DNA from: Asterionella formosa
Lineage: Eukaryota
Length of the DNA stretch: 40,568 nucleotides
Assembly (NCBI GenBank): GCA_002256025.1
Contig: NKIB01014792.1
Coordinates: forward strand, 1-40,568
Reading direction: 5' to 3'
In this document: positions 1,620-38,037 of the stretch, one piece after another
Numbering within the stretch: the stretch's first letter is position 1
How the letters are laid out: each line of letters begins with the position of its first letter
Notes under the pieces: generated by a model
Told to the model about the DNA's origin: nothing
Seen by the model: the letters and a program-made list of their open reading frames with translations, nothing else
Database searches by the model: none
Translations under genes and position numbers: made by a program

Positions 1620-2794
1620 AGGCCATATATTTGACTGAACCAATTGGAAGATAAGCCAATAAATTCAGACGCATGTTCAGGATCCCTTATTCATTTTTTA
1701 GAGATCAGTTACTTGATTTAGCTGTTGAAAAATGTTGGCCATTATGGAAGGATGACAAAGTTGACTGTTGTGGCCTTCCAGTGGGCGACTTGGAGCGCTT
1801 GATTTACAGCCCACTTGGAACAGCTGCTAATCATCTTGTTGTCAGTATGAACGCAAATTTGAGTGAATAGGCACATCGCTCATTCTTTATCAATTGGACA
1901 GAGAAGATGGAGTCACTTCAACGGCATCTACATGCCATGTGATGATGAAAAATACAGTTTTGTGGTCAATGAATACAGTGACATGGGACTCACTGGATGT
2001 GTCGGTTCAGTTGATTGTGTACACATGGGCTGGGACCAGTACCCTATATACTAGTCAATATTTTCACATGTACACAGGCAAAGAGATCTTTCCATCCATT
2101 GCATATGAGGTCATCTGCACAAGCCAAAATTCATTCAGGCATTTTTATCTGGCCATCCTGGAGCTAGAAATGTTAAACACATAGTCAGAACTGATGTTGC
2201 AGGGCTGAAAATTTTACAAGGCAATGGATGGATACAGTCGAAAGCAAGGATAGAGTGCAGTAGTAAGCGGAGCAGGGAACTCTCGATCATTTCATGGGCT
2301 ATACCTCATTTGCAATGGTGGATATCCATTATCTTTGTTGGCCATCATGTCTTGTATATCCTTTAAAAATAGGACTTGCTGGTGGCAGTATGACAATGAG
2401 GTGATCAGCTATGCTTGAGTCTGTTTGCAAAGACATTGAAGGAGTCTTTGGTATTCTGAAAAAACGGTTTGCATTCCTTAAATTTCTCAACCAGCCATGT
2501 GCATCATCAACAGCATATTGACAATTCATTGTAACTTGTTGTATACTCCATAATATTCTATTGAAAGAAGACGGACACTTCAACAATGATCTAACTAACT
2601 ATCCAAGTTGAGTGAAGGCACGACTAAACAAAATTACTAATGATCCAAGGGGATTTGGTCAGTGGATAGTACTTGATGAGCTTGATGGTGATACCATCAA
2701 GGCGGCATTAGTTGAAACAGTAAATAGTCCTGATTTGGAAAGCCAGTGGCTAGCTTGCGATCAGGCATTGATGAATTATTTCCAGTTTAGATAA
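1620..2794 (+). pseudogene. PIF/Harbinger-superfamily DDE transposase relic (Plant_tran/DDE_Tnp_4-like) with multiple stops and frameshifts
   Basis: Collinear motifs across frames: FRRMFRIPYSFF, GCVGSVDCVHMGWD, YTGKEIFPSIAYEVIC, GARNVKHIVRTD, GLYLICNGGYP, LESVCKDIEGVFGILKKRFAFLK, CCILHNILL. Confidence 0.85.
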
Positions 2795-2835
2795 TATAAC
2801 AATGTATAATCTAGTAGTATTAATAGTTGATTAAC

Positions 2836-3300
2836 TTACTCTTCATCAGCATCCTTGGGATCCCAGACTTCTATCATCTGTGACCTATTTTCTTGGTCCC
2901 CATCATTGACAATTATCACTTCAACATCTGCCTTGTATGTTTGTGGGTCTGGCATTGCTTTGAACACAGCTCGCACTCAAGAAGTATATTCTGAATCAAT
3001 AATTTTGGCTTCATCCTGTCCAACGACAGGTTCAAGGTTTTCTCTGGGTCATCCAGCTGGTCCTGTTGACACAACGCATTAGCGTTCTCCTTTAATGCTT
3101 TTGCTGCGTGTAGCTTCACCCACATGATTTGTTTAATCTATGTATTTTAATGTTTGAACTTCCTAGATTTGTGATCCACACAATCATCTTTATACTTCTG
3201 CTGTCTTCATGCTTTCGAACTGCTCGAGATAGTGGAATGTTGTTTGTATCGCCAAGCACCTCTGCAACATTGGGTGTCAACTGTGGGTCCCTGCAGCAAT
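2836..3300 (-). pseudogene. Possible decayed second ORF of the Harbinger element, convergent with the transposase
   Basis: Broken coding-like frames ending in an acidic tail (..IEVWDPKDADEE*) tail-to-tail with the transposase. Harbingers carry a second ORF, but no Myb/SANT motif is recognisable. Confidence 0.3.
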
Positions 3301-3319
3301 TTTAACTGTCAATACATAC

Positions 3320-3392
3320 AACTAGAAATCTGCTGACAGCAACTAGTAGAAGTTGCTGACAACAACTAGAAATTGCTGACTATGACTAGAAG
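3320..3392. repeat. Short degenerate tandem repeat (~20-23 bp unit, 3 copies)
   Basis: Repeated '(c)tagaa.(t)tgctgac..caa' units. Confidence 0.6.
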
Positions 3393-3980
3393 TAACTTGA
3401 TTGGTGAATTCCATTAGTAAACCGTCTTCCAGTTGCTGAATACCATTACCAGTAGTTGTAGGTGAGCACAATTTTGATGTACAGAACACGACTTGGATTT
3501 AATGATTGATAATTTAACATAATAGAAATTTCCTTAAGAGTTTAGAATGGAAAGCCAGCCTATCTCATCTGGTAGGCATGGGATGAGTCTTTGCGAGTGA
3601 GTCGAAACAGAATAAGTGCACATTAACTGTGTGCTACCAGGCCTTCCAGGTCAAGTATCTAACTAGAAGTATGAGTATTTATTGAAAAAATGAGCTTATC
3701 TGTTGACCATTGCTGCATCGAACTCATTCAACTGTACATACAGTATTCAATACATAGGCGTTGGTCGAGTTCTCTCATGATCGAGTTCTCCTGCTATACT
3801 TGATATATCCCTAACCCTATATACACCTTTATCGTCATGCTGGATCGCTCACCACCACCGGGTCTAACAATTGGTCCATTATATTGTCTTCTTTATGACC
3901 ATTGGTTGGTTGTTTGTTTCGACATCTCCCACCCTTACTCGACCATGAAGTAAATTTCAGCCAACTATTACAAGTCCATC

Positions 3981-27599: not shown

Positions 27600-28192
27600 G
27601 TTGCTTCGGGTTCTTGCTTGATATAGAAGTTGCTGACTGCGATTTCCGGTCTCTACACAGCTGATGATGATCGATGATTTTTATGTGCGACCAGGAAGAT
27701 AGTATGTTGTACCGCGGGGTCTTGATACATAGCCTGGTACTCCAGTTATAAAACACTGGTGCTTTGAACGCACCTACCGGACTACCGGTAGTCTACCCGG
27801 GAGACTACCAGGGTACCTGGTACTCTATTATTTCACTACCGGTATATGTTTGTGTATGTGACTGCCAGTACGTTCGATCGATTAGTACGACTAAACACTT
27901 AAATATTACCAGTAGTTTCAATCGAGGTGGGGGATTATGATTGGACAAACGATTCAACCAGATTCCATTGACAACAGAAGATATGAGCAAATGTTTATAA
28001 TGATGCATTTACTATTTATGGAGGTTCAAAGTGGTATATAAAAGTACCTTAATACCATAGAATTAATTTATGTTCTATCATACAGGGAATATGGATTACA
28101 ACATTTCATAAAAATTATTTTATGAAATCACTCAAAATATATAAATCATCCTTCCAATGAGTATTCATCATCAAACGCCGCTTTCCGCAAAC

Positions 28193-29215: not shown

Positions 29216-31197
29216 ATGCCGCCTCCCCAATCTCGTCGAATGACATTGGGCGTGGTCAACATGAACAGTCAGGTCTCGATTGGAGGTGGCACTCGTGCTG
29301 AGACACCAAACAAGGCCTCCAAGCAAAAGCCTCCTCGTGGAAGAGTCTCCATGCTTCCCCGAGTGGGAAGGGAGAATATAGTCCCTCCCAGTCCAGCCCG
29401 TTCTGTCGTCAGCGCAGCTACTGCCAACTCACGTCGGCGCTCGGTTGGTGGAGTGGATCATCGCAGAGCTTCATCGGCAGCTGTAAAGCAGGACCCACGC
29501 CCGATAACTGACAAACTCCATCAGAATGGATGTGTCAAGCGCTTGCTCGAGTATCTCATTACTACTGGATACGATTATCCCATTTCGCAGAAGACTCTGG
29601 CGAGGCCTTCTGGGAAAGATTTTGCAAACATTGTGACTTTTCTACTCAGAAAGGTTGACCCTACCTTCCAAAACGGTCTCATGAAATTTGAAGATGAAGT
29701 TGCAATGAACTTCAAGGCCATGGGATACCCTTTTCCAGTTTCGAAGACAGCTTTGGTGGCTGCGGGCTCTCCACACACTTGGCCAACCCTCCTCGCTGCA
29801 TTGACATGGCTCATGGAACATATCATGTGCATTGAAGCTGATTTGGATGAGGATGTCAAGGAGGACCCTGATAAACCATTTGAATCATTAGACGAATTAG
29901 AAGGCAAAACGGACAAGGCATTTTTCAGGTTTCTTAGTGGAGCCTACTCTGCGTTTTTGAAAGGAGATCAGCAACAGTCGGATATGCTGACAGATGGATT
30001 GTTGGAAATGTTTGAGCACGACAACATGATCATCGAAAGGGAGATCGATCGAGTTACAGACCTCAATGCCGCTATTCTTCAAAAGATGAATCATTTGTCA
30101 CAAGAGTCAGAATCGTGAGTCCTTTTGTTCTTTCAATCTGTTTCGATTTATAGTTATCATGCTAACCAACTGTCAGTCTCCCAACCTTGTCTCAAAAGCG
30201 AGAAGAGTATGCCACTGACCTGGAACAGTATCATGACTTAGTTCGCCAGATGGATGAACATAAATTGGCATTGGAGGAAAAGGTCAAGGAGCGAACTGCC
30301 GAGCTTCGCGAAACCGAAGTCCACCTAGAATCCATGACAGAGAAAGTCACCACATTGAAGGACACAATTCAGCGTCAAGACTTGTCAGTTGAAGATATTC
30401 GGAAGATGCAAGTAGAGAACGAACGAGTGAGTGAGGCTCTTGAGAAAGCCTGCTTATTGCGGCAAAATAATAAGGAAGCTCTATGGATTTCGGAGACAGA
30501 GTTGAATAAACTGTTTGAACGTCTCGAAATTGCCGTCGAAAGCTATAATGTGAAAATTACAGAGCTTTCTCTTCTCATAGATAATGCTGGCGAATTTAAA
30601 ATGTCTATCAACAGGGAGTCTGCAGCTTCAGGCGATCAATCTCAGTTGCTTCAAGTCAGTCTTCGCACTGATGTACGCCCTTTCCTCGCCGACTTCAAGG
30701 CTGAAATCAGCGAACAAATGACAGTTCTTCGTCGAGATCTACAAGAGGAACTGGACCAGCTAGAAACCAGGGAAGCGGCATTGACAGAAGCCAGCGACAT
30801 ACTTCAAATTCTAGAAGACAGAAAAGCAAAATGCGAAGAGAACATTGTTAAGGAGCGTGAGCAGGCGGAGGCTGCCTTAGCTGTCCGGCTGCGAGAGATC
30901 GACGTATTAGAAGACAACATTGAATCACTTCGAGATCCTGCAGCATTGGAAGAGCAGATTGCAAGGTACCAGCGTCAGTGTACTCAGTTAGAGGCTCTTC
31001 AGATGAAACATCAAGAAGAGAATATATCCCAGAAAATTGCTGTCCTCGACGAAATCAAAACTGCGATTAGAGCAATCACGGACCATAATCAATATCTACA
31101 GGAACAATTTGGGGTCATGAAGCAATACGCGATCAGCAAACGATCTGTAATTCTTGATGTTACTCTTTCTGAAAAGACGAACATTGGTAAGCAGTAA
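29216..31197 (+). CDS. NDC80: Kinetochore protein NDC80/HEC1 (~639 aa); exon 1 29216-30114, intron 30115-30176, exon 2 30177-31197
   Basis: Basic N-terminal tail, KQDPRPITDK, PSGKDF, MGYPFPVSKTALVAAGSPHTWPTLLAALTWL (HEC1 CH domain), long coiled coil. GTGAGT donor, GCTAAC branch point and CAG acceptor give an in-frame join. Confidence 0.95.
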
Positions 31198-31329
31198 AAG
31201 TGCGGATTTTACAATTATTATATCTATCTAGTGCAACGCCATCGGGAGAAATAAGTATTAAAAAAATTGTAGTCGAAGCTTATGCATTTCACTGACCTTT
31301 CATTCCATCAATGAGTTTTAGAGAAGATT

Positions 31330-32427
31330 TCATTGCTTTGTTTTGTGTTGAGCAACTAGAGCAGTATTTCGTTCCTGTACAAGTCGTGGTAAATCTCCAA
31401 CTGACCAGAAGTCGACGTAGTACGTGGATACTGTCAAATTTTCATTGGCATGTGAGCAGTTTTCAATGCGGCTGTTAGCAAAGTTCTCCAAATTGGCCGT
31501 CGCGGCAGTCAATTCACTTGTAGGTGTGACAAAGCCGTTGACAGCAAAGAATTTTTTACTGCTGCGGTCAACACCTCTTGTTATTTTGCACGAGTAAGTA
31601 ATATTTTCCAATTCTTGAAGGTCGATAAAAGAATATTCGGTTTCAACTGCGTAATCCCAATAGAAATTCATTCCTACTGGACAATCCCCTGCGTCGCAAT
31701 TCGCTCCGTTGTAGTGAAATAGAATGATACGCGTGTCGGCATCACGGAGGGTTCGAAGAGTGGGCCACGCATAGCTGGAGTTACTGTGTTGATAAAGCAT
31801 GTCGGTCATGCCGCTGACATTGGTCAATACTTGATAGATTCCGTCAAGAGTGACTTGTTGGCCTGCTTGACTGTTAATTTCAATATTTATTACGATGATT
31901 TCGCTGGGATTGTCATTCAAAAAGGTGACTATTTCGGTGAAGAACTCCACCGCAGATCTTTCAGCCAGCTTGCAAATGCCATGGCAGAGTACGTACCTGC
32001 CATCACAATTGCACATGTCTACTGATATGTCCCGGAAGCCAGCGGCAAGAGAAACTTTGGTTTCAATCTTTTGATTGGCCTCAATAAAGAATCCCTTGTC
32101 CGTCGAAGCGAAACTGTTGTGAGCTCCAGCGAAGAGGACTTCGCCTAGTCGGAGATCACACATACCATCAAGGCCTTGGCAGCAATCATCTTTCGTTTGG
32201 CACTGAATGAAGACATACGGCTGAGTTGAGGGAGAGGAAGAAGGGGCAGGCATATCGGTTGAGTCCGTGGAATTCGCCGCAAAATTCGGCAAAACATTGG
32301 TGATTGCTTGATCGAAGGGAACAAACAACCGGATCAACACTACTGCCACGGCGATGAGAACGAATGTGAAAATAACGCGAGGCCAGTTGCAGCAACTCTT
32401 CTTGACAGAAGCTTCAGATGATGACAT
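31330..32427 (-). CDS. PI-PLC X-domain-like phosphodiesterase with an N-terminal membrane anchor
   Basis: CQGLDGMCDLRL..FAGAHNSF, LCHGIC, FLNDNPSEIIVI, WPTL, YVDFWSVGDL. Hydrophobic segment at ~aa 18-35. Confidence 0.82.
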   Translation of the reverse strand: MSSSEASVKKSCCNWPRVIFTFVLIAVAVVLIRLFVPFDQAITNVLPNFAANSTDSTDMPAPSSSPSTQPYVFIQCQTKDDCCQGLDGMCDLRLGEVLFAGAHNSFASTDKGFFIEANQKIETKVSLAAGFRDISVDMCNCDGRYVLCHGICKLAERSAVEFFTEIVTFLNDNPSEIIVINIEINSQAGQQVTLDGIYQVLTNVSGMTDMLYQHSNSSYAWPTLRTLRDADTRIILFHYNGANCDAGDCPVGMNFYWDYAVETEYSFIDLQELENITYSCKITRGVDRSSKKFFAVNGFVTPTSELTAATANLENFANSRIENCSHANENLTVSTYYVDFWSVGDLPRLVQERNTALVAQHKTKQ

Positions 32428-32952
32428 AGTGAAGGGAATGGAAACTGAAAAGATTTCCGAATGGAGAGTTTGAGTTTAATGAGACGCGATGCCGTACTGA
32501 TTTTCGATTTGACGATGTACTAGTGTCGCTGTTGGACTACACTGAGCCCTAACAGGCTCGCAGTCGTCGCAAACAGTAAAGAAATTGGTGCGCAGAGCTT
32601 TTGGAAAAAGCCACAGTGGAACGTTGCTTTCCTAAACCATGAAGAGTTCTTAGTGAATGTTGCTTTGTTCCCCAGCAAGCAAAGCCGGGAAATATGAAAT
32701 ATCTCATGTATGACACCGGTAAAGCTATGCTCAATCGGTGCTGACAGCGAAAGGAAACGACAAGCAAGAATAAAAAGCGCGCAAGCTAACATTTGAATTA
32801 GTCCCGGTACAGGTATATTCTTGCTTCGCTTATTGCAAGTATTACGTAGCGAGTGGGTTGTGGTACCGGGAGTTGACGGAAACTCCAAAGTACGAAAAGT
32901 CACGTACAAAAACGGTGTTTTATCTAAAATCGACCTCGCATCACGTTTTCCC

Positions 32953-33097
32953 AAAGGACCGCAAAAGACCGCAAAGTTCGCAAAAGACCGCAGAAAAACG
33001 TCGTATATCCGGGGTTTCCCGTTCTTTTGCGGTCTTTTGAGGTCTTTTGCGAACTTATGCGAACTTTTGCGAACTTCGCGTTCTTTTGCGGTCTTTT
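32953..33097. repeat. Head-to-head array of ~10-bp units (AAAAGACCGC / AAAAGTTCGC and their reverse complements)
   Basis: About 4 units plus CGCAGAAAAACG (32953-33000), a ~19-bp spacer, then about 8 inverted units GCGGTCTTTT/GCGAACTTTT (33020-33097). Confidence 0.92.
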
Positions 33098-33580
33098 CGT
33101 TCGACCTCCGTCAGTGTGTTAAAAGGTTGCGGCCCCGCAGTTACAAATTGCGAGGTCCTTTTTTCCCAAATTAATTTTATGATGTACCTTCATCCACACA
33201 TTACGTACAAGCAAATAAAACAGTTAAAGGTAAAATTAGCTTTCACCAATACGACCACTTTGCTCATGCTTAGATACAGTCATGGGTCGACTTAGGGGTA
33301 TGTTCTATCTTCGGATATGGTAAGGACCTCATTTCTGGAAAGAAACTGCAGTTATGTATCGTAGATTCGTAACTATCGCAAAAATAGTCAAAAAAGGTGC
33401 TACGAAGCTTTTCTAAAAATCTATGATACATAACTGCAGTTTCTCTCCAGAAATTAACTTCTGACGTTATAGGGTAACTACAGGTAGAAGGTTGAATGAT
33501 TAGAAACGGAATACTGGGACTTTTCCCAAAACAGGAAGAAACTGGAACAACTATTTGTAAATTCACCTGCCCATTGGCAT

Positions 33581-33652
33581 TTGCACCACAATTGCACCAC
33601 CAATTGCACCACCAATTGCACCACTATACTTAGAGTAGCCTGAATTGCACCA
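33581..33652. repeat. Tandem (AATTGCACCACC)-type 12-mer, about 4 copies plus one detached copy, upstream of the recombinase
   Basis: ttgcaccacaattgcaccaccaattgcaccaccaattgcaccac (33581-33624) and aattgcacca near 33643. Confidence 0.9.
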
Positions 33653-33798
33653 GACTATATCGAATCCGTGCTACTATGTTAATATTCATAACTGTAAAGG
33701 AATATATGTGATCCTCAAAATTACAGCCCGCCAATATTTGATGAATAATTTGTTCACTTAACTTGCCAATTTCGCATCCATATACTTGAATTGTCAGA

Positions 33799-35958
33799 AT
33801 GAGTAAGAAGAAGAATGCAAGCGGTGAGACTAAAAAGCTTGCCAATCTACCTCGGGATGTCTTGTATGCCAAGGATATACCAGCAGATGTTGAAGATAAG
33901 GTAGCCCAAGGAATTCTGAATGCTTTGGACAAATTGAAAAAGACATCTGTTGACCGACGTTTGGCTGAATTGACTGGTACAAGTGCACTCCGATATCGTA
34001 CAGAGATAAGCTATGAGGTTCACTTTCATGGTCTTACAAATTTCTTCAAATTGATTGGAGATTATGAGTCACTGTTCATGCTTAGGGAAAAATGTCCTGC
34101 CAACTGTCCATCCATTAAGGTAGAATCCCTTGTAATGTATGTATGGTGGAAATACAATGCATCTAGTATGACATTAGTGGATCTTGGTGGAAAGGAAGTT
34201 TATGATGTCATGGGGCATCTTATAAAATGTCGTGGGGATTGGAATGCCCCTGAAAAGCGTAAGGGATTTCATACTGCAGTATGGTGCATTCATAAGGCTC
34301 ACAATCAAACTGGTAACTGCATACAGGCTTGTTAAGACTGTCGTGGTATGCCCTTTGATGAGTGGTATAAGGGATGCAGTACCCAAAAGGGTCATCCTGC
34401 TCTAATTAGGTCTGGTAATCCTGCATACGACTCAGTCTTTACAGATTGTTTGGATAGAATTGGGATGGATAGACGAGACTACTTAAGGCAACCTACAGAG
34501 CAGCTCCTACCTTGCTGGGTGCAACAGTTGCGTGATTGTCTTTTGTCCAGCAATTCAATAATTGACTTGCAGACATTTACAATCATCCAGATATCTATTT
34601 GTCTGTTCCTTCGCTTTGATGAATTCGTGGACATCGAGCTAGACCATTTTGAAGCAAAGCATTTTGTCTTTGATGAGCGATGCTGGAAACATCCGAGCTC
34701 TATGTCTAAAAGTCTTTGGGAAGTCAGACGAAAACTGGGTGCATCTGTTCCTCTGGATCTATGAAGAATTCCCAGAGTTTTGTCCAGTGTCACTCCTACT
34801 GTCTTACTTGCACTGTGCAAAGATCAAGGAAGGTTTTCTTTTTCCTACAGAGGACGAATTGAAATGTCCACCGGGTAATGGCATTTTTGTCACGCAGATT
34901 TCCTACAAAGTGGGAAGAAACCGGTTAACTAAAATTGTTAGAGAGGTGCTTGGTTTGGAGAATCTAAAGGTTGGTATGCATATTTTCCGTAGGACGGGGT
35001 ACCTGTTTGGTCGTTGGGGTGGTGGAGCTGTGGAATCCTTGATGAAATCTGCTCGTCACCAGTCACTCAAGACAGCAATGTTATATGTTGAGGATGCAGA
35101 TGCCCAGCTAGCAATTGCCCACATACACAACAATCATTTAACAAAGTGTATACATTCAAGTCTATATTTGTCAAGGTGACTATGGCTACACTAGCATTAA
35201 ACCTACCATCGGTGGTTTTTCAGTGCGAAATTTTGGAGCTTTCTAAAAGGTATGTACATGATCGACTGAATGTCCCAAGGTCACACCCAAGCTCCTTCAG
35301 TCCTGCGCACATAGTCGTATGTACCCTTGCTATGAGCTACGTACGGCCGCAGAATGCCAATGAACAGCTCGAGTTATTTTTGAACGAGCTAGCTACCCCT
35401 CGTGCAGAAAAATTACGCAGCCTGATCAACATTGTGGTACACACACGAGTTATGAAGAATGAAGAAAATCGGATGTATTTTAATGCTATTGCTGCTACTA
35501 CAAGTTATCAAGATTCAACAATGGAAAATGGTTCTACTAATACTGTTGCTACTACTACAATCGGAAAAACGAATGCTGCTACTAGCTATCCCAAAAGCAC
35601 CAAAGAAAAACCGGAAAAGTGGGTCCATTGAATTTGACGAGATTTTTTAGGTTGCCAAACAAAAAATTCTCATGAGAAGCTTGACTTGATCTTGAATCTT
35701 GCAAGAAAAATGGAGCGTCTCCTCCACTCAGATGTGACTGAAAGGATGCGACTCTTCTTTGATGTAAAATTTATCAAGCCGATAATCTTATGAATCCTGA
35801 ATCATTGCGATGGCAAAAGATACACTTTCCACAGCCTCCATCCACAGTTCCTCCTCTCAAAAATCCCCAAAGGCTCCGGATGTAGCAAGGTTGATTGTAG
35901 AGTAAATTGGTTAGTAAATCAAAAGAAATTGCATGTTAGCGATAGCACGGACCAGTGA
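33799..35958 (+). pseudogene. Tyrosine recombinase (phage-integrase fold), disrupted by an in-frame TAA at 34333 and frameshifts near 34680, 35140 and 35600-35670
   Basis: Catalytic residues in order: LFLRFDEF (R, 34612), VFGKSD (K), MHIFRRTGY (HxxR, 34979), SARHQSLKTAMLY (H 35057, Y 35084). Also FCPV and an upstream RSGNP. Confidence 0.85.
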
Positions 35959-38037
35959 CCGCTTTCAATCATCACATTTGGGGAGTTTGTTGTTTATTTC
36001 CATTTCTGTGTGGTGATGTGCATGATGCAACATTGGAGACGAATATTGAAAAGGTGCACATGCGCAACAAATAATATTTCAAAATGACTTCGTGACGTCA
36101 TGTCGTCGCTGCACCACATTACACCACCATAGACCTACTGGTACTCCACCTGGTACCTGGTACAAGGTACTCCGTACCAGGTATCGGTACAGGACACCGG
36201 TATACCGTGTGATGAGCAATGTTATTGCCCGTAGATGTTTACTGCCTGAAGTTGCACGTACTTTTCAAGAACTGCGCGAACTTCGCAGAAAAACGCGCGA
36301 CTAGAATTTTGCAATGATGGTTTTCTTTAAAGTGTCGACGGCAATTCCACTACGTCTGCAAATAAAAAGCATCATGCATATAGGATCAAGGGTATCATAC
36401 GCTAAGTGGCACAGGATTTTCGTCTATATATGATAATTTTTGGATCAAAAATATGATCAAGGTATCTTGTAACTATGATGATTTATTAATATTTTACCGA
36501 CCTTGAAGTATAATGATAATAAGAACATTATCATCACACGATGTATATAAACTGATCAACAACATTTCCCATCAATATCATAAACCTTCTCATATTATTT
36601 TCACTTCTCGTGATCACCCGATGTAAATCCTTACTACAATGTATCCTAAAACCAGCTCAACTCTATGCTATCATGTGAATTGTTTCATCGTAAATCTATT
36701 GTAAACATGATCATAATTCTAATCACAAAGATTGTTCAAAAAAAATGAAATGGATCGTAATTTAACTATCAAATTAAGCAATGCTATCTATTAATCTACA
36801 TGCCAGCGACCCAATGTTTCTCTCTCTACTCGGCTCAATGTATATTGTTCCTGTCTCGCCAATTTCTTCCTCTTTCTGAATTGTGCGCGAGGCAGTGCCT
36901 TACTGATGCTGCATCTCTTTCCCTGCTGTAAGTGTCATTCTGAACTTGCCGACAATTCCGTTGTTTGATTGTTTTTATTTTCCTATGCATGCAGTTACAG
37001 TAACAATGAGAAGGAATGATTTGTTAGCTAGTCATGTTACATTGACACAAGAACACGCAATTCCATTGTATCCTCTTGCTTCACTTACCACAAATCAATG
37101 CAAATGATGCATAAGTCTGTAATAGTAACTGGTCAGTAAATTCTTGAATAAGTAAGTTTCGGGTATCCAATGTTGTCGAATAAAACTTACCAGTTCATTT
37201 TTGTCAGCTTAACTTTGAGAGAAGGTAAACGTTTTGTCAGTTTTATTCCAACAGAAGTGAATAGGTCCAACGAGCGACAAGAGCACTTACGCAATTTGGT
37301 TTTGTTTTACATTGGTGCTCCCCAACAAGCGAAACGAGCTGTTGAATCAACTGAGAAAAAAGGAAATGTGCGTTTAGTTAACAATTTGTTGTTGTGCTGC
37401 CTGCCTCCCAACGATTGTCATCCAAGTACCACATTGATGGCTTCATTACCTTAAACATTCTTCATCCTTCGAAGGCGCAATGTGTCGAAGCCACAAAGTT
37501 TTCATTATGTATTGCGTAAACTTTCTTTTCTTGTCATGTGCTTTACTACGACCTATCTTTTCATGAAGCAGCAGGCATTGTTTGTTAACATGACAGAACG
37601 ATTTCAAAAATATATATGCCATGAATATAGTAATAAAAATTGTAAATATATATATATATATGAAGTGTAATACATTTATAAAATTCAAAGGCGCTCTCGA
37701 TATGGAACATCTGAGATGGTTGAGATGATCATACTCGCATATACATAATTCAAAAATACTCAATGCACTATATGTCCATTGTTTTCCTTGACTACGTGTA
37801 CCGGTATTATTTCTGAAATTTGTTTGCATCGATATTTTCTACGTCCGTTGAAACTTATTTAGACCATTCAATTGGAGTACTAAGTCATAACTGCCAGGGT
37901 TTTGGTAGCAAATTGTTTAAGCCCCTTTTTTGGGCGGGAGCTCTTCATGTGCACCGGTACATCATATGACACTAACAATATATCATATATATATATACAG
38001 AGTACCAGTAGCAGGTAGTAAGTAATATACTGGGGGT

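Follow-up and report, generated by a model that had tools for sequence, protein, structure and literature searches.

A probable decayed copy of a single-gene Crypton-type DNA transposon in the diatom Asterionella formosa

What kind of mobile element carried the broken tyrosine recombinase (YR) gene found on a contig of Asterionella formosa, and where did this element begin and end? The window analysed here is the whole stretch of 40,568 nucleotides of contig NKIB01014792.1 (assembly GCA_002256025.1). The second part of the question bears on the Crypton DNA transposons as a group, reportedly treated by Goodwin et al. 2003, a work known here through citing papers: Crypton boundaries are notoriously hard to define. 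We consider it very likely that positions 33512-36141 are a decayed copy of a compact single-gene DNA transposon of the diatom, about 2.6 kb long and of the Crypton type. An initial annotation had already proposed a Crypton-like, RT-less element with a tyrosine recombinase as its only gene, and the unit delimited here, with a single ORF, no RT and TACTGG at both of its ends in the window, agrees with that part of the proposal.

The YR pseudogene occupies 33799-35894 on the forward strand, as delimited by alignment to an intact copy on a metagenome contig (L001) and by its own read-through translation, P0001, in which the breaks are marked X. Intact relatives are 690 aa long, and over 97% of its length P0001 shares 91% identity with one of these, P0002, in which the YR domain covers about residues 230-450. 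Compared with the L001 copy, the forward strand carries a TAA stop at 34333-34335, a gain of 4 nt at 34675 compensated by the loss of 1 nt at 35140, a second such pair at 35582 (+4 nt) and 35656 (-1 nt), a TGA stop at 35791-35793 and the loss of 1 nt at 35887. Most other copies, seen in read contigs of the probable source run, have C at position 34333 and hence a CAA codon. Across 59 aligned relatives R271, K306, H418 and Y427 never vary, and H392 and R395 hardly do. The window copy has kept these catalytic residues while frameshifts have broken its reading frame, and the description of a complete, now disrupted, R-K-HxxR-H-Y recombinase was therefore correct: all the residues are present in the read-through.

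In an AlphaFold2 model of the recombinase (pLDDT 90.1) the fold is Cre-like: Foldseek ranks Cre-DNA complexes first (3crx_A, E 1.9e-6, TMt 0.67) and after them XerH, the Tn1549 integrase and Ndc10. At the sequence level, Pfam searches with the separate ORF pieces and with the read-through of the broken copy gave no match, and searches of PDB sequences, with the single sequence and with a profile, gave chance-level matches only. No Pfam match to RT or RNase H was found in the 11 window ORFs of at least 150 aa nor in nine further ORFs around the element, which bears out the earlier remark that these domains are absent nearby; the window ORFs scanned also contained no DDE transposase domain recognised by Pfam. 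DIRS, Ngaro, PAT and VIPER elements are YR retrotransposons with RT/RNase H, inverted terminal repeats (ITRs) or split direct repeats, and an expected circular junction. The element resembles them in its YR and in the circular junction expected of it, but RT/RNase H, ITRs and split repeats are missing.

The boundaries are provided by L001, which carries one 690-aa ORF at 309-2381. By blastn, L001 20-2631 corresponds to window 33509-36145 at 93% identity, and L001 2622-3728 restarts at window 33512. The contig repeats itself with a period of 2598 bp and contains 1.43 head-to-tail units, the copies being joined through one TACTGG-type core; in the doubled part they are told apart by a C/T difference in this core, a single internal SNP and one N. 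Such an intact head-to-tail relative fixes the element boundaries to the base. In the window, the left TACTGG core, a short terminal direct repeat and the presumed crossover site, is located at 33512-33517 on the forward strand (L001 junction alignment; blastn start 33509/33512). The right core, on the same strand, is located at 36136-36141 by the same alignment, and in L001 it is directly followed by the element's own 5' end. The ends are fixed by just two independent junction sets, the window and the left end of L001.

Between the left core and the gene lies a 5' non-coding part (33518-33798, forward strand), which includes four direct TTGCACCAC(C/A)A iterons at 33581-33624 (TRF period 12, 3.8 copies, 96% matches), conserved in L001 at 91-135. 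The 3' non-coding part (35895-36135, forward strand) carries two degenerate iterons, CTGCACCAC and ATTACACCAC, at 36107-36129, just ahead of the right core. The window has 5 occurrences of TTGCACCAC where 0.44 would be expected, and by inference the iterons are putative recombinase-binding sites. A repeat search of the window revealed no terminal inverted or split repeats bounding 33512-36141, and no lox-like inverted-repeat arrangement around the junction core was detected by eye.

The initial annotation had placed the element at about 33020-36295, with inverted or direct copies of CGCAGAAAAACG and GCGAACTTCGC as its ends and a left boundary resembling a right-end/left-end junction. The motifs themselves are real. 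The 12-mer CGCAGAAAAACG occurs exactly at 32989-33000 and 36284-36295 and the 11-mer GCGAACTTCGC at 33069-33079 and 36276-36286, as had been stated, and reading the sequence confirms that CGTTCTTTTGCG at 33020-33031 matches the reverse complement of the 12-mer at 10 of 12 positions. They flank the YR gene and are more frequent than chance predicts: four window matches to CGCAGAAAAACG with at most one mismatch against 0.20 expected, and five to GCGAACTTCGC against 0.44, numbers reached in none of 100 shuffles in either case. Moreover, the right motif resembles a pair of the 10-bp units repeated on the left, in the same orientation. Nevertheless, L001 is devoid of them, and the TACTGG at which it returns to its own start lies 135-520 bp further in; on this point alone the proposed ends fail. 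Both motifs are equally absent from 28 other related loci. The repeat boundaries defined by reads are 32868 and 33123, rather than 32953 or 33020, and one contig links the two flanks without the YR unit. We therefore give hardly any credence to these outer ends: what the window copy has in common with the intact relative runs from 33512 to 36141, with a 6-bp TACTGG direct repeat at each end. A right-end/left-end junction was a sound idea for the family, as the head-to-tail junction of L001 illustrates, but not for the boundary at 33020 and the ends proposed with it.

The motifs belong to a different repeat, in which the element landed or which it adjoins. Those on the left fall within a strong but imperfect palindrome (32953-33100), in which 10-bp repeats CAAAAGACCG (4.2 copies) face TCTTTTGCGA (7.6 copies) and whose DNA fold reaches -43.3 kcal/mol (z = -6.2). 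This palindrome and a hairpin with 53-nt arms at 33315-33470 lie in the left flank (32868-33511, no strand assigned), which is outside the YR unit and separately repeated. Here the single-copy contig stops at 32897, 32 contigs have loose ends at 32868 and 52 at 33123, a more abundant sub-part begins at 33123, and the summed depth rises from 861 to 209,183 and then to 1,074,209. The right flank (36142-36354, no strand assigned), also outside the unit, includes a GGTAC/ACCTGGT cluster at 36142-36200 and the right-hand motifs at 36276-36295; a repeat present about 5000-fold begins near 36355, with a back-joint from 36951 to 36355. In Rfam the hairpins hit only hairpin-type miRNA models, with scores far below gathering, so that they are not known RNAs.

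Could the two flanks (32868-33511 and 36142-36354) and the YR unit together form one larger composite element, of which L001 would be a shortened derivative? Besides the 10-bp motifs on both sides, a 23-nt stretch at 36332-36354 resembles, as read by eye, 32869-32893 (23-25 nt) in direct orientation, and summed depth stays of the same order across 33512, without a sharp fall (439,000 in bin 33340-33573 vs 330,000 in bin 33574-33807). No loose end or joint at 33512 or 36141 is found among those listed for the read contigs. Against a composite, the left flank of L001 differs from that of the window copy, depth in the left flank climbs to 5-10 times the ORF value, and the flank occurs without the unit, in a single contig of the probable source run where 33514 is joined to 36167. 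Taken together, these observations make a composite very unlikely, and we retain the compact transposon at 33512-36141.

The abundance of the unit raises another possibility. Contig depth summed over the ORF is 75,000-205,000 against 861 at the flanking single-copy genes in the best-covering run, that is about 90-240x, a rough measure which is not a copy number. In RNA run X15, contigs covering 33560-36088 have a depth of 80-130 vs 3-5 on neighbouring genes; with a possible copy excess of about 100-fold, carried-over DNA would give the same ratio, so expression cannot be inferred from it. The 2.6-kb unit might exist mainly as a plasmid-like circle or as a satellite-like tandem array kept by its recombinase, comparable to FLP of the yeast 2-micron plasmid, with the window copy as a rare dead integration. 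The 1.43 head-to-tail units of L001 would fit, as would the many contigs encoding members of the P0002 cluster that are 2,595-2,877 bp long, about one unit plus assembler overlap, which is the size at which circles or tandem repeats assemble. A chromosomal tandem and a circle assembled over more than one round are distinguished in L001 solely by its distinct left end, where the first 22 nt are unrelated to the 3' end of the unit. This end, together with a hybrid core, TACCGG, is what an integrated array would be expected to show. Moreover, the window copy is integrated, with a core on both sides, and the 2,633-bp unit common to two further relatives, L011 and L027, sits in different flanks (their element ends and flanks have just 2-3 nt in common, GG/AGG, which is neutral on the 6-bp core). 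There is also no recognisable replication gene or origin in the 2.6 kb. A mainly circular or satellite-like existence thus appears improbable next to that of a chromosomally inserted Crypton-type transposon. Elsewhere, the 25-nt junction had no match in the genome-contig collection, and the protein profile retrieved 8 pattern matches and no relative from this collection. A viral-contig collection gave 24 pattern matches, none of them a relative.

How might such a transposon move? Under the Goodwin/Kojima Crypton model, the recombinase would produce a circular form of the element, by excision or by copying, in which the two ends meet as ...CCATAGACC-TACTGG-GACTTTTCC..., and the circle would recombine with a chromosomal site having the same core, here GGAA-TACTGG-TACTCC, leaving one core at each end. 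The presumed recombination sites would be of the TAGACCTACTGGGAC type, with TACCGGTA/TACTGGTA as candidate target, and the TTGCACCAC iterons flanking the junction would probably be accessory binding sites. A resident copy also offers this core at its own end, so that a circle re-integrating there would produce a tandem array of the kind shown by L001.

The insertion site in the window, TACTGG|TA, resembles the palindrome TACCGGTA, which is present 15 times in the window against 0.19 expected; CTGGTACTCC has 4 exact occurrences and 9 with at most one mismatch (1.1 expected). The left flank of L001, GGTAGACTACCGG, is identical to a copy of the motif at window position 27795 on the minus strand. 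The window insertion itself is intergenic, about 400-1,000 bp upstream of a PI-PLC-X-like gene. Judging from these two insertions, the preferred target looks like a TACYGGTA palindrome abundant in the intergenic DNA of this genome. The comparison yields a concrete pair of sites, TAGACC-TACTGG-GACTTT in the element and TACYGG-TA in the target; should the preference for TACCGGTA be genuine, the enzyme would be a eukaryotic site-specific recombinase whose target is short and defined, which has some interest for engineering diatom genomes.

Cryptons in general are described as elements of a few kb with a single YR gene, 4-6-bp terminal direct repeats, and neither RT, TIRs nor long terminal repeats (Kojima & Jurka 2011, PMC3212892). 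The element agrees with them in its size, its YR as sole gene, its lack of RT, TIRs and long terminal repeats and its short terminal direct repeats. As this is the ordinary Crypton layout, the claim of unusual repeated ends falls away, and a new element type characterised by such ends does not stand; what had been called a candidate new family is possibly new at the level of the YR lineage only. Head-to-tail copies, seen for its relative L001, are another matter: no description of tandem Crypton arrays was found in the Crypton literature at the level of titles, abstracts and selected passages.

A close parallel is CryptonF-1_cRei of Chlamydomonas reinhardtii, an active element which has CACCG at its end and CAYCG as its target and favours intergenic DNA near genes (PMC9977147). 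In both cases the terminal motif equals the target motif (CACCG / CAYCG there and TACTGG / TACYGG here) and insertion is intergenic and close to genes. Activity was observed directly in the alga, whereas the window copy is dead and the mobility of the diatom element is inferred. CryptonF proteins carry a C-terminal GCR1_C DNA-binding domain, which is not among the matched families listed for the recombinase studied here (the best 25 of 41 in a Pfam scan of 59 members at E<=1). The same scan matched NDC10_II in 5 of the 59 (best E 1.4e-6) and Phage_integrase in 4. NDC10_II is a domain said to derive from CryptonF.

In its stramenopile host, its C-terminal region without GCR1_C, its short terminal repeats and its similar size class (2.6 kb), the element resembles CryptonS. 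These stramenopile elements, including CryptonS-1_PTri of Phaeodactylum, have 5-7-bp terminal repeats, measure 2.9-4.7 kb and share a conserved C-terminal region lacking GCR1_C (PMC3212892). The majority of CryptonS families listed there end in TATGG, as opposed to TACTGG here; CTGTAAG in CryptonS-1_PTri and TTACTG in CryptonS-23_PI indicate that TATGG is not strictly defining (PMC3212892). Their boxes GRASD, KT, SHSFRRG and RGxW, in the parts of that paper used, differ from LFLRxDE, GKxD, HxxRxTGY and SARH in a comparison made by eye only, and the YR has an ARH...Y box where CryptonS/A/I show W in supplement 4 (PMC3212892). Set against the published descriptions of these subgroups, the element is very probably a further member of the Crypton-type DNA transposons.

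Its recombinase belongs to a large eukaryotic family without a Pfam model of its own, which in a profile search comprises 2,410 clusters at 50% identity, with diatoms and chytrid fungi among the named members. Annotating this family would put a name to many "hypothetical proteins" of diatoms, chytrids and freshwater metagenomes. A more ambitious reading, which we regard as rather unlikely, is that it represents a large unclassified Crypton lineage that integrates site-specifically at a palindromic, promoter-proximal motif of the TACCGGTA type littering the intergenic DNA of this diatom and builds head-to-tail arrays through the core at its own end. If this were true, the element would use as a safe landing pad a genome-wide, regulatory-looking motif, which it perhaps helped to spread. 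In an ESM Atlas feature search, which provides a lead only, the nearest clusters come from diatoms and oomycetes (0.97).

Fragments of a single protein, in frames 1, 2 and 1, are distributed across positions 33799-35894 of the window. Read through, with an X placed at one stop and one frameshift, the product shows 91% identity over 97% of the length (E 1.4e-285) to P0002, an intact relative of 690 aa whose cluster includes 143 sequences. Further relatives are found at 64%, 48%, 45% and about 30% identity and all are 680-750 aa long. Neither the read-through nor its separate pieces match Pfam, and PDB searches by sequence returned nothing meaningful. A seven-member profile searched against 1.84 billion proteins retrieved 2,410 cluster representatives at E ≤ 0.001 (640 at E ≤ 1e-30), a large and so far unannotated recombinase family. 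Across 59 aligned members, W147, C177, C192, G205, P237, R271, K306, F346, H418 and Y427 are invariant and H392, R395, C180 and H195 nearly so, giving the R-K-HxxR-H-Y set of tyrosine recombinases (YRs) and, in the N-terminal half, a C-x2-C...C-x2-H cluster. With an AlphaFold2 model built on this alignment (pLDDT 90.1), Foldseek placed Cre-DNA complexes at the top of the PDB matches (3crx_A, E 1.9e-6, TM 0.67 on the target), followed by XerH, XerA and Tn1549 integrase and, weakly, yeast Ndc10; 36 matches were obtained at E ≤ 0.001. When members were scanned singly with Pfam, NDC10_II was found in 5 of the 59 (best E 1.4e-6) and Phage_integrase in 4 (best E 0.0051). The catalytic residues, the Cre-like predicted fold and these matches together mark the window protein, at the level of sequence and model, as a genuine YR of the eukaryotic Crypton/Ndc10 sort. 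The initial annotation, which had proposed a Crypton-like element without RT, was right as to class: the YR is confirmed and no RT or RNase H match occurs in the window ORFs scanned with Pfam (11 of at least 150 aa and nine around the element).

The limits first proposed, 33020-36295 with inverted or repeated ends, have to be replaced. A scan of JGI metagenome contigs gave 29 related loci, one of which, L001 (3,730 bp), has an ORF whose product is 99% identical to P0002. Positions 20-2631 of L001 align with window 33509-36145 (93% identity) and, in a second alignment, 2622-3728 with window 33512-34622 (94%). This double alignment and an L001 self-match (18-1131 against 2616-3730) show that L001 carries a 2,598-bp unit 1.43 times, head to tail. 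In the doubled part the copies differ only at the core (C/T), one internal SNP and one N, and the 22 nt at the start of L001 bear no relation to the 3′ end of the unit. The four junctions, ...TTAGAAACGGAA-TACTGG-GACTTTTCCC (window left), ...GGTCGTGGTAGAC-TACCGG-GACTTTTCCC (L001 left), ...CACCACCATAGACC-TACTGG-GACTTTTCCC (L001 unit-to-unit) and ...CACCACCATAGACC-TACTGG-TACTCCACCTGG (window right), can be aligned and thus delimit the window element as 33512-36141, which is a unit of 2,624 bp followed by a second TACTGG. Its two ends carry an identical 6 bp and no inverted or long terminal repeats. Cryptons are described as carrying 4-6-bp terminal direct repeats, taken as the recombination substrate, and no TIRs (PMC3212892, PMC13465315). 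The window ends match this layout and are not, as had been suggested, unusual. The window copy and the L001 unit are 94.3% identical, and together they provide base-exact termini for a poorly bounded class of transposon.

By its layout the element is a Crypton. DIRS, Ngaro and PAT elements are ruled out by the lack of RT in the ORFs scanned and of ITRs or split repeats. Further Crypton groups are listed in Repbase and Dfam. CryptonS is presented in PMC3212892 as the stramenopile group, with one Phaeodactylum element of 4,671 bp having CTGTAAG termini and most others TATGG. The window element resembles this group in host range, size class and a conserved C-terminus that is not GCR1_C, whereas its catalytic boxes, compared by eye, are unlike those printed in supplement 4 of that paper. 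GCR1_C, which defines CryptonF in the same source, was not found among the Pfam families listed for the 59 members (best 25 of 41, E ≤ 1). The tie to CryptonF is the Pfam link to NDC10_II, a domain derived from CryptonF YRs according to PMC3212892.

The repeated motifs on which the first limits were based are present as reported: CGCAGAAAAACG is exact at 32989-33000 and 36284-36295, GCGAACTTCGC at 33069-33079 and 36276-36286, and the 12-mer CGCAGAAAAACG, inverted, agrees with CGTTCTTTTGCG at 33020 in 10 of 12 positions. The counts of CGCAGAAAAACG and GCGAACTTCGC were reached in 0 of 100 dinucleotide shuffles. The motifs lie 135-520 bp outside the YR unit, and none of the 29 loci, L001 among them, contains them. 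Those on the left are units of a 10-bp tandem repeat, CAAAAGACCG x4.2 (32952-32992) facing TCTTTTGCGA x7.6 (33023-33097), and the facing arrays together make a strong imperfect palindrome whose arms are 86% complementary (fold z = -6.2). The right motif, CGCGAACTTCGCAGAAAAACGCG, resembles two further 10-bp units oriented like the left arm.

Contigs from four sequencing runs were compared over 31000-38000. X1, the best match, may be the window's own source; its summed contig depth, which is not copy number, is 861 up to 32403, 209,183 at 32872-33105, 1,074,209 at 33106-33339, 75,000-205,000 over the YR ORF, 345,000 at 36148-36381 and 2.3-4.3 million from 36382 onward, with no sharp drop at 33512. 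A single-copy X1 contig with zero mismatches stops at 32897, and loose ends with unlike flanks accumulate at 32868 (at least 32 contigs) and 33123 (at least 52). At least one contig (depth 1,063) connects 33514 to 36167 with two additional letters (CA) between them, reading ...GGAATAC-CAG-TACTCC-GTACCAGG; it is the left and right flanks joined without the YR unit. We read 32868-33511 and 36142 to about 36354 as belonging to one or two further repeat families, adjoining or interrupted by the Crypton. Both are hairpin-rich, and Rfam returned only miRNA-hairpin matches, all sub-threshold. The segment 33123-33511, which begins at the second pile of loose ends and in which left-side depth peaks (about 1.07 million), looks MITE-like, with a hairpin of 53-nt arms (33315-33367 and 33418-33470, 83% complementary). 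The start of the left flanking repeat, GAGTTGACGGAAACTCCAAAGTACG (about 25 nt, 32869-32893), and GTGTCGACGGCAATTCCACTACG (36332-36354), the last 23 nt or so before the high-copy repeat, share about 17 positions by eye in direct orientation, and could be terminal direct repeats of a flanking element or a chance likeness. The extremely abundant repeat from about 36355 to 38000 and beyond (2.3-4.3 million against 861 for single-copy X1 sequence) has no Pfam-recognisable ORF and many internal joints and back-joints, such as 36951->36355 and 37403->36468.

At 34333 in the YR gene, where the window copy reads TAA, most of the other copies among the reads carry C (codon CAA). A 4-nt insertion at 34675 is common to most of the X1 summed depth (contigs lacking it account for 3,951 of 28,064), so a copy that was already defective may have given rise to many of those in the source. 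This frameshifting insertion (34675-34678) is absent from X6 contigs and nearly absent from those of the RNA run X15.

The right flank starts TACTCCACCTGGTACCTGGTAC and, with the core, an unoccupied site would read TACTGGTA. The insertion site resembles a palindrome, TACCGGTA, present 15 times in the window (918, 947, 7735, 8625, 15897, 16233, 18360, 18770, 20460, 20623, 27783, 27837, 29030, 29081 and 37799) against 0.19 expected, a count reached in 0 of 100 shuffles; CTGGTACTCC occurs four times exactly and nine times with at most one mismatch (1.1 expected). The contexts of TACCGGTA are varied, mostly intergenic, near gene starts, often paired and often beside (ACCTGGT)n runs, and in this diatom it may act as a promoter motif or a transcription-factor motif. 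The L001 left flank, GGTAGACTACCGG, has an exact counterpart in the motif copy on the minus strand at window 27795. Insertion at TACYGG|TA, seen in two insertions, a small number, fits CryptonF-1_cRei, the one Crypton with observed activity, and raises the possibility of a motif-specific target. CryptonF-1_cRei has CACCG at its end, targets CAYCG and favours intergenic DNA close to genes (PMC9977147).

For this element the enzyme class, the single-gene 2.6-kb unit and the identical short cores at both ends are established; the head-to-tail junction passes through one core and the flanks differ in the two samples. A circle with the junction ...TAGACC-TACTGG-GACTTT... would recombine with a chromosomal TACYGG core, and strand exchange within the core would account for the hybrid TACCGG at the L001 outer junction. 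Tandem arrays would arise if the element re-integrated at the core of a copy already in place. Direct TTGCACCAC iterons, four at 33581-33624 and two degenerate at 36107-36129, may be accessory binding sites, and in a circle would lie on both sides of the core within about 90 bp. P0002-cluster contigs are mostly 2,595-2,877 bp, the lengths expected when a circle or a tandem unit is assembled, although this is only suggestive.

Other relatives vary in organisation. L011 (3383-6015) and L027 (201-2770) hold two copies, 93% identical, of a common 2,633-bp unit, the same size as the window element, with unrelated flanks on both sides. L012, L013 and L014, from a family at about 28% identity, have tandem arrays of about 90-bp repeats on both sides of the YR ORF (for example L012 38-242 and 3642-3823), and upstream of this ORF L010 and L014 have another conserved region in common, about 1.2 kb long. 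Named family members (P0072, P0099, P0198, P0086) come from chytrids (Zopfochytrium polystomum, Boothiomyces sp.) and a Bacillariaceae MAG, a patchy spread over distant eukaryotes; some are longer, at 950-1,280 aa. In an ESM Atlas feature search, taken as a lead only, the closest clusters were those of diatoms and oomycetes, followed by those of NDC10_II, DUF3435, Phage_integrase and DUF3504.

The genes of the window are ordinary nuclear ones (among them annexin, ion channel, ribosomal protein uS17, COQ5, M16 peptidase, Ndc80). Named relatives of its COQ5 are all diatoms (Nitzschia, Seminavis, Amphora, Cylindrotheca, Fistulifera and Cyclotella, 57-68% identity), and the runs containing this stretch are labelled as algae or freshwater metagenomes. 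A PI-PLC-X-like gene occupies 31330-32475 on the minus strand, with the element inserted about 1 kb from its start.
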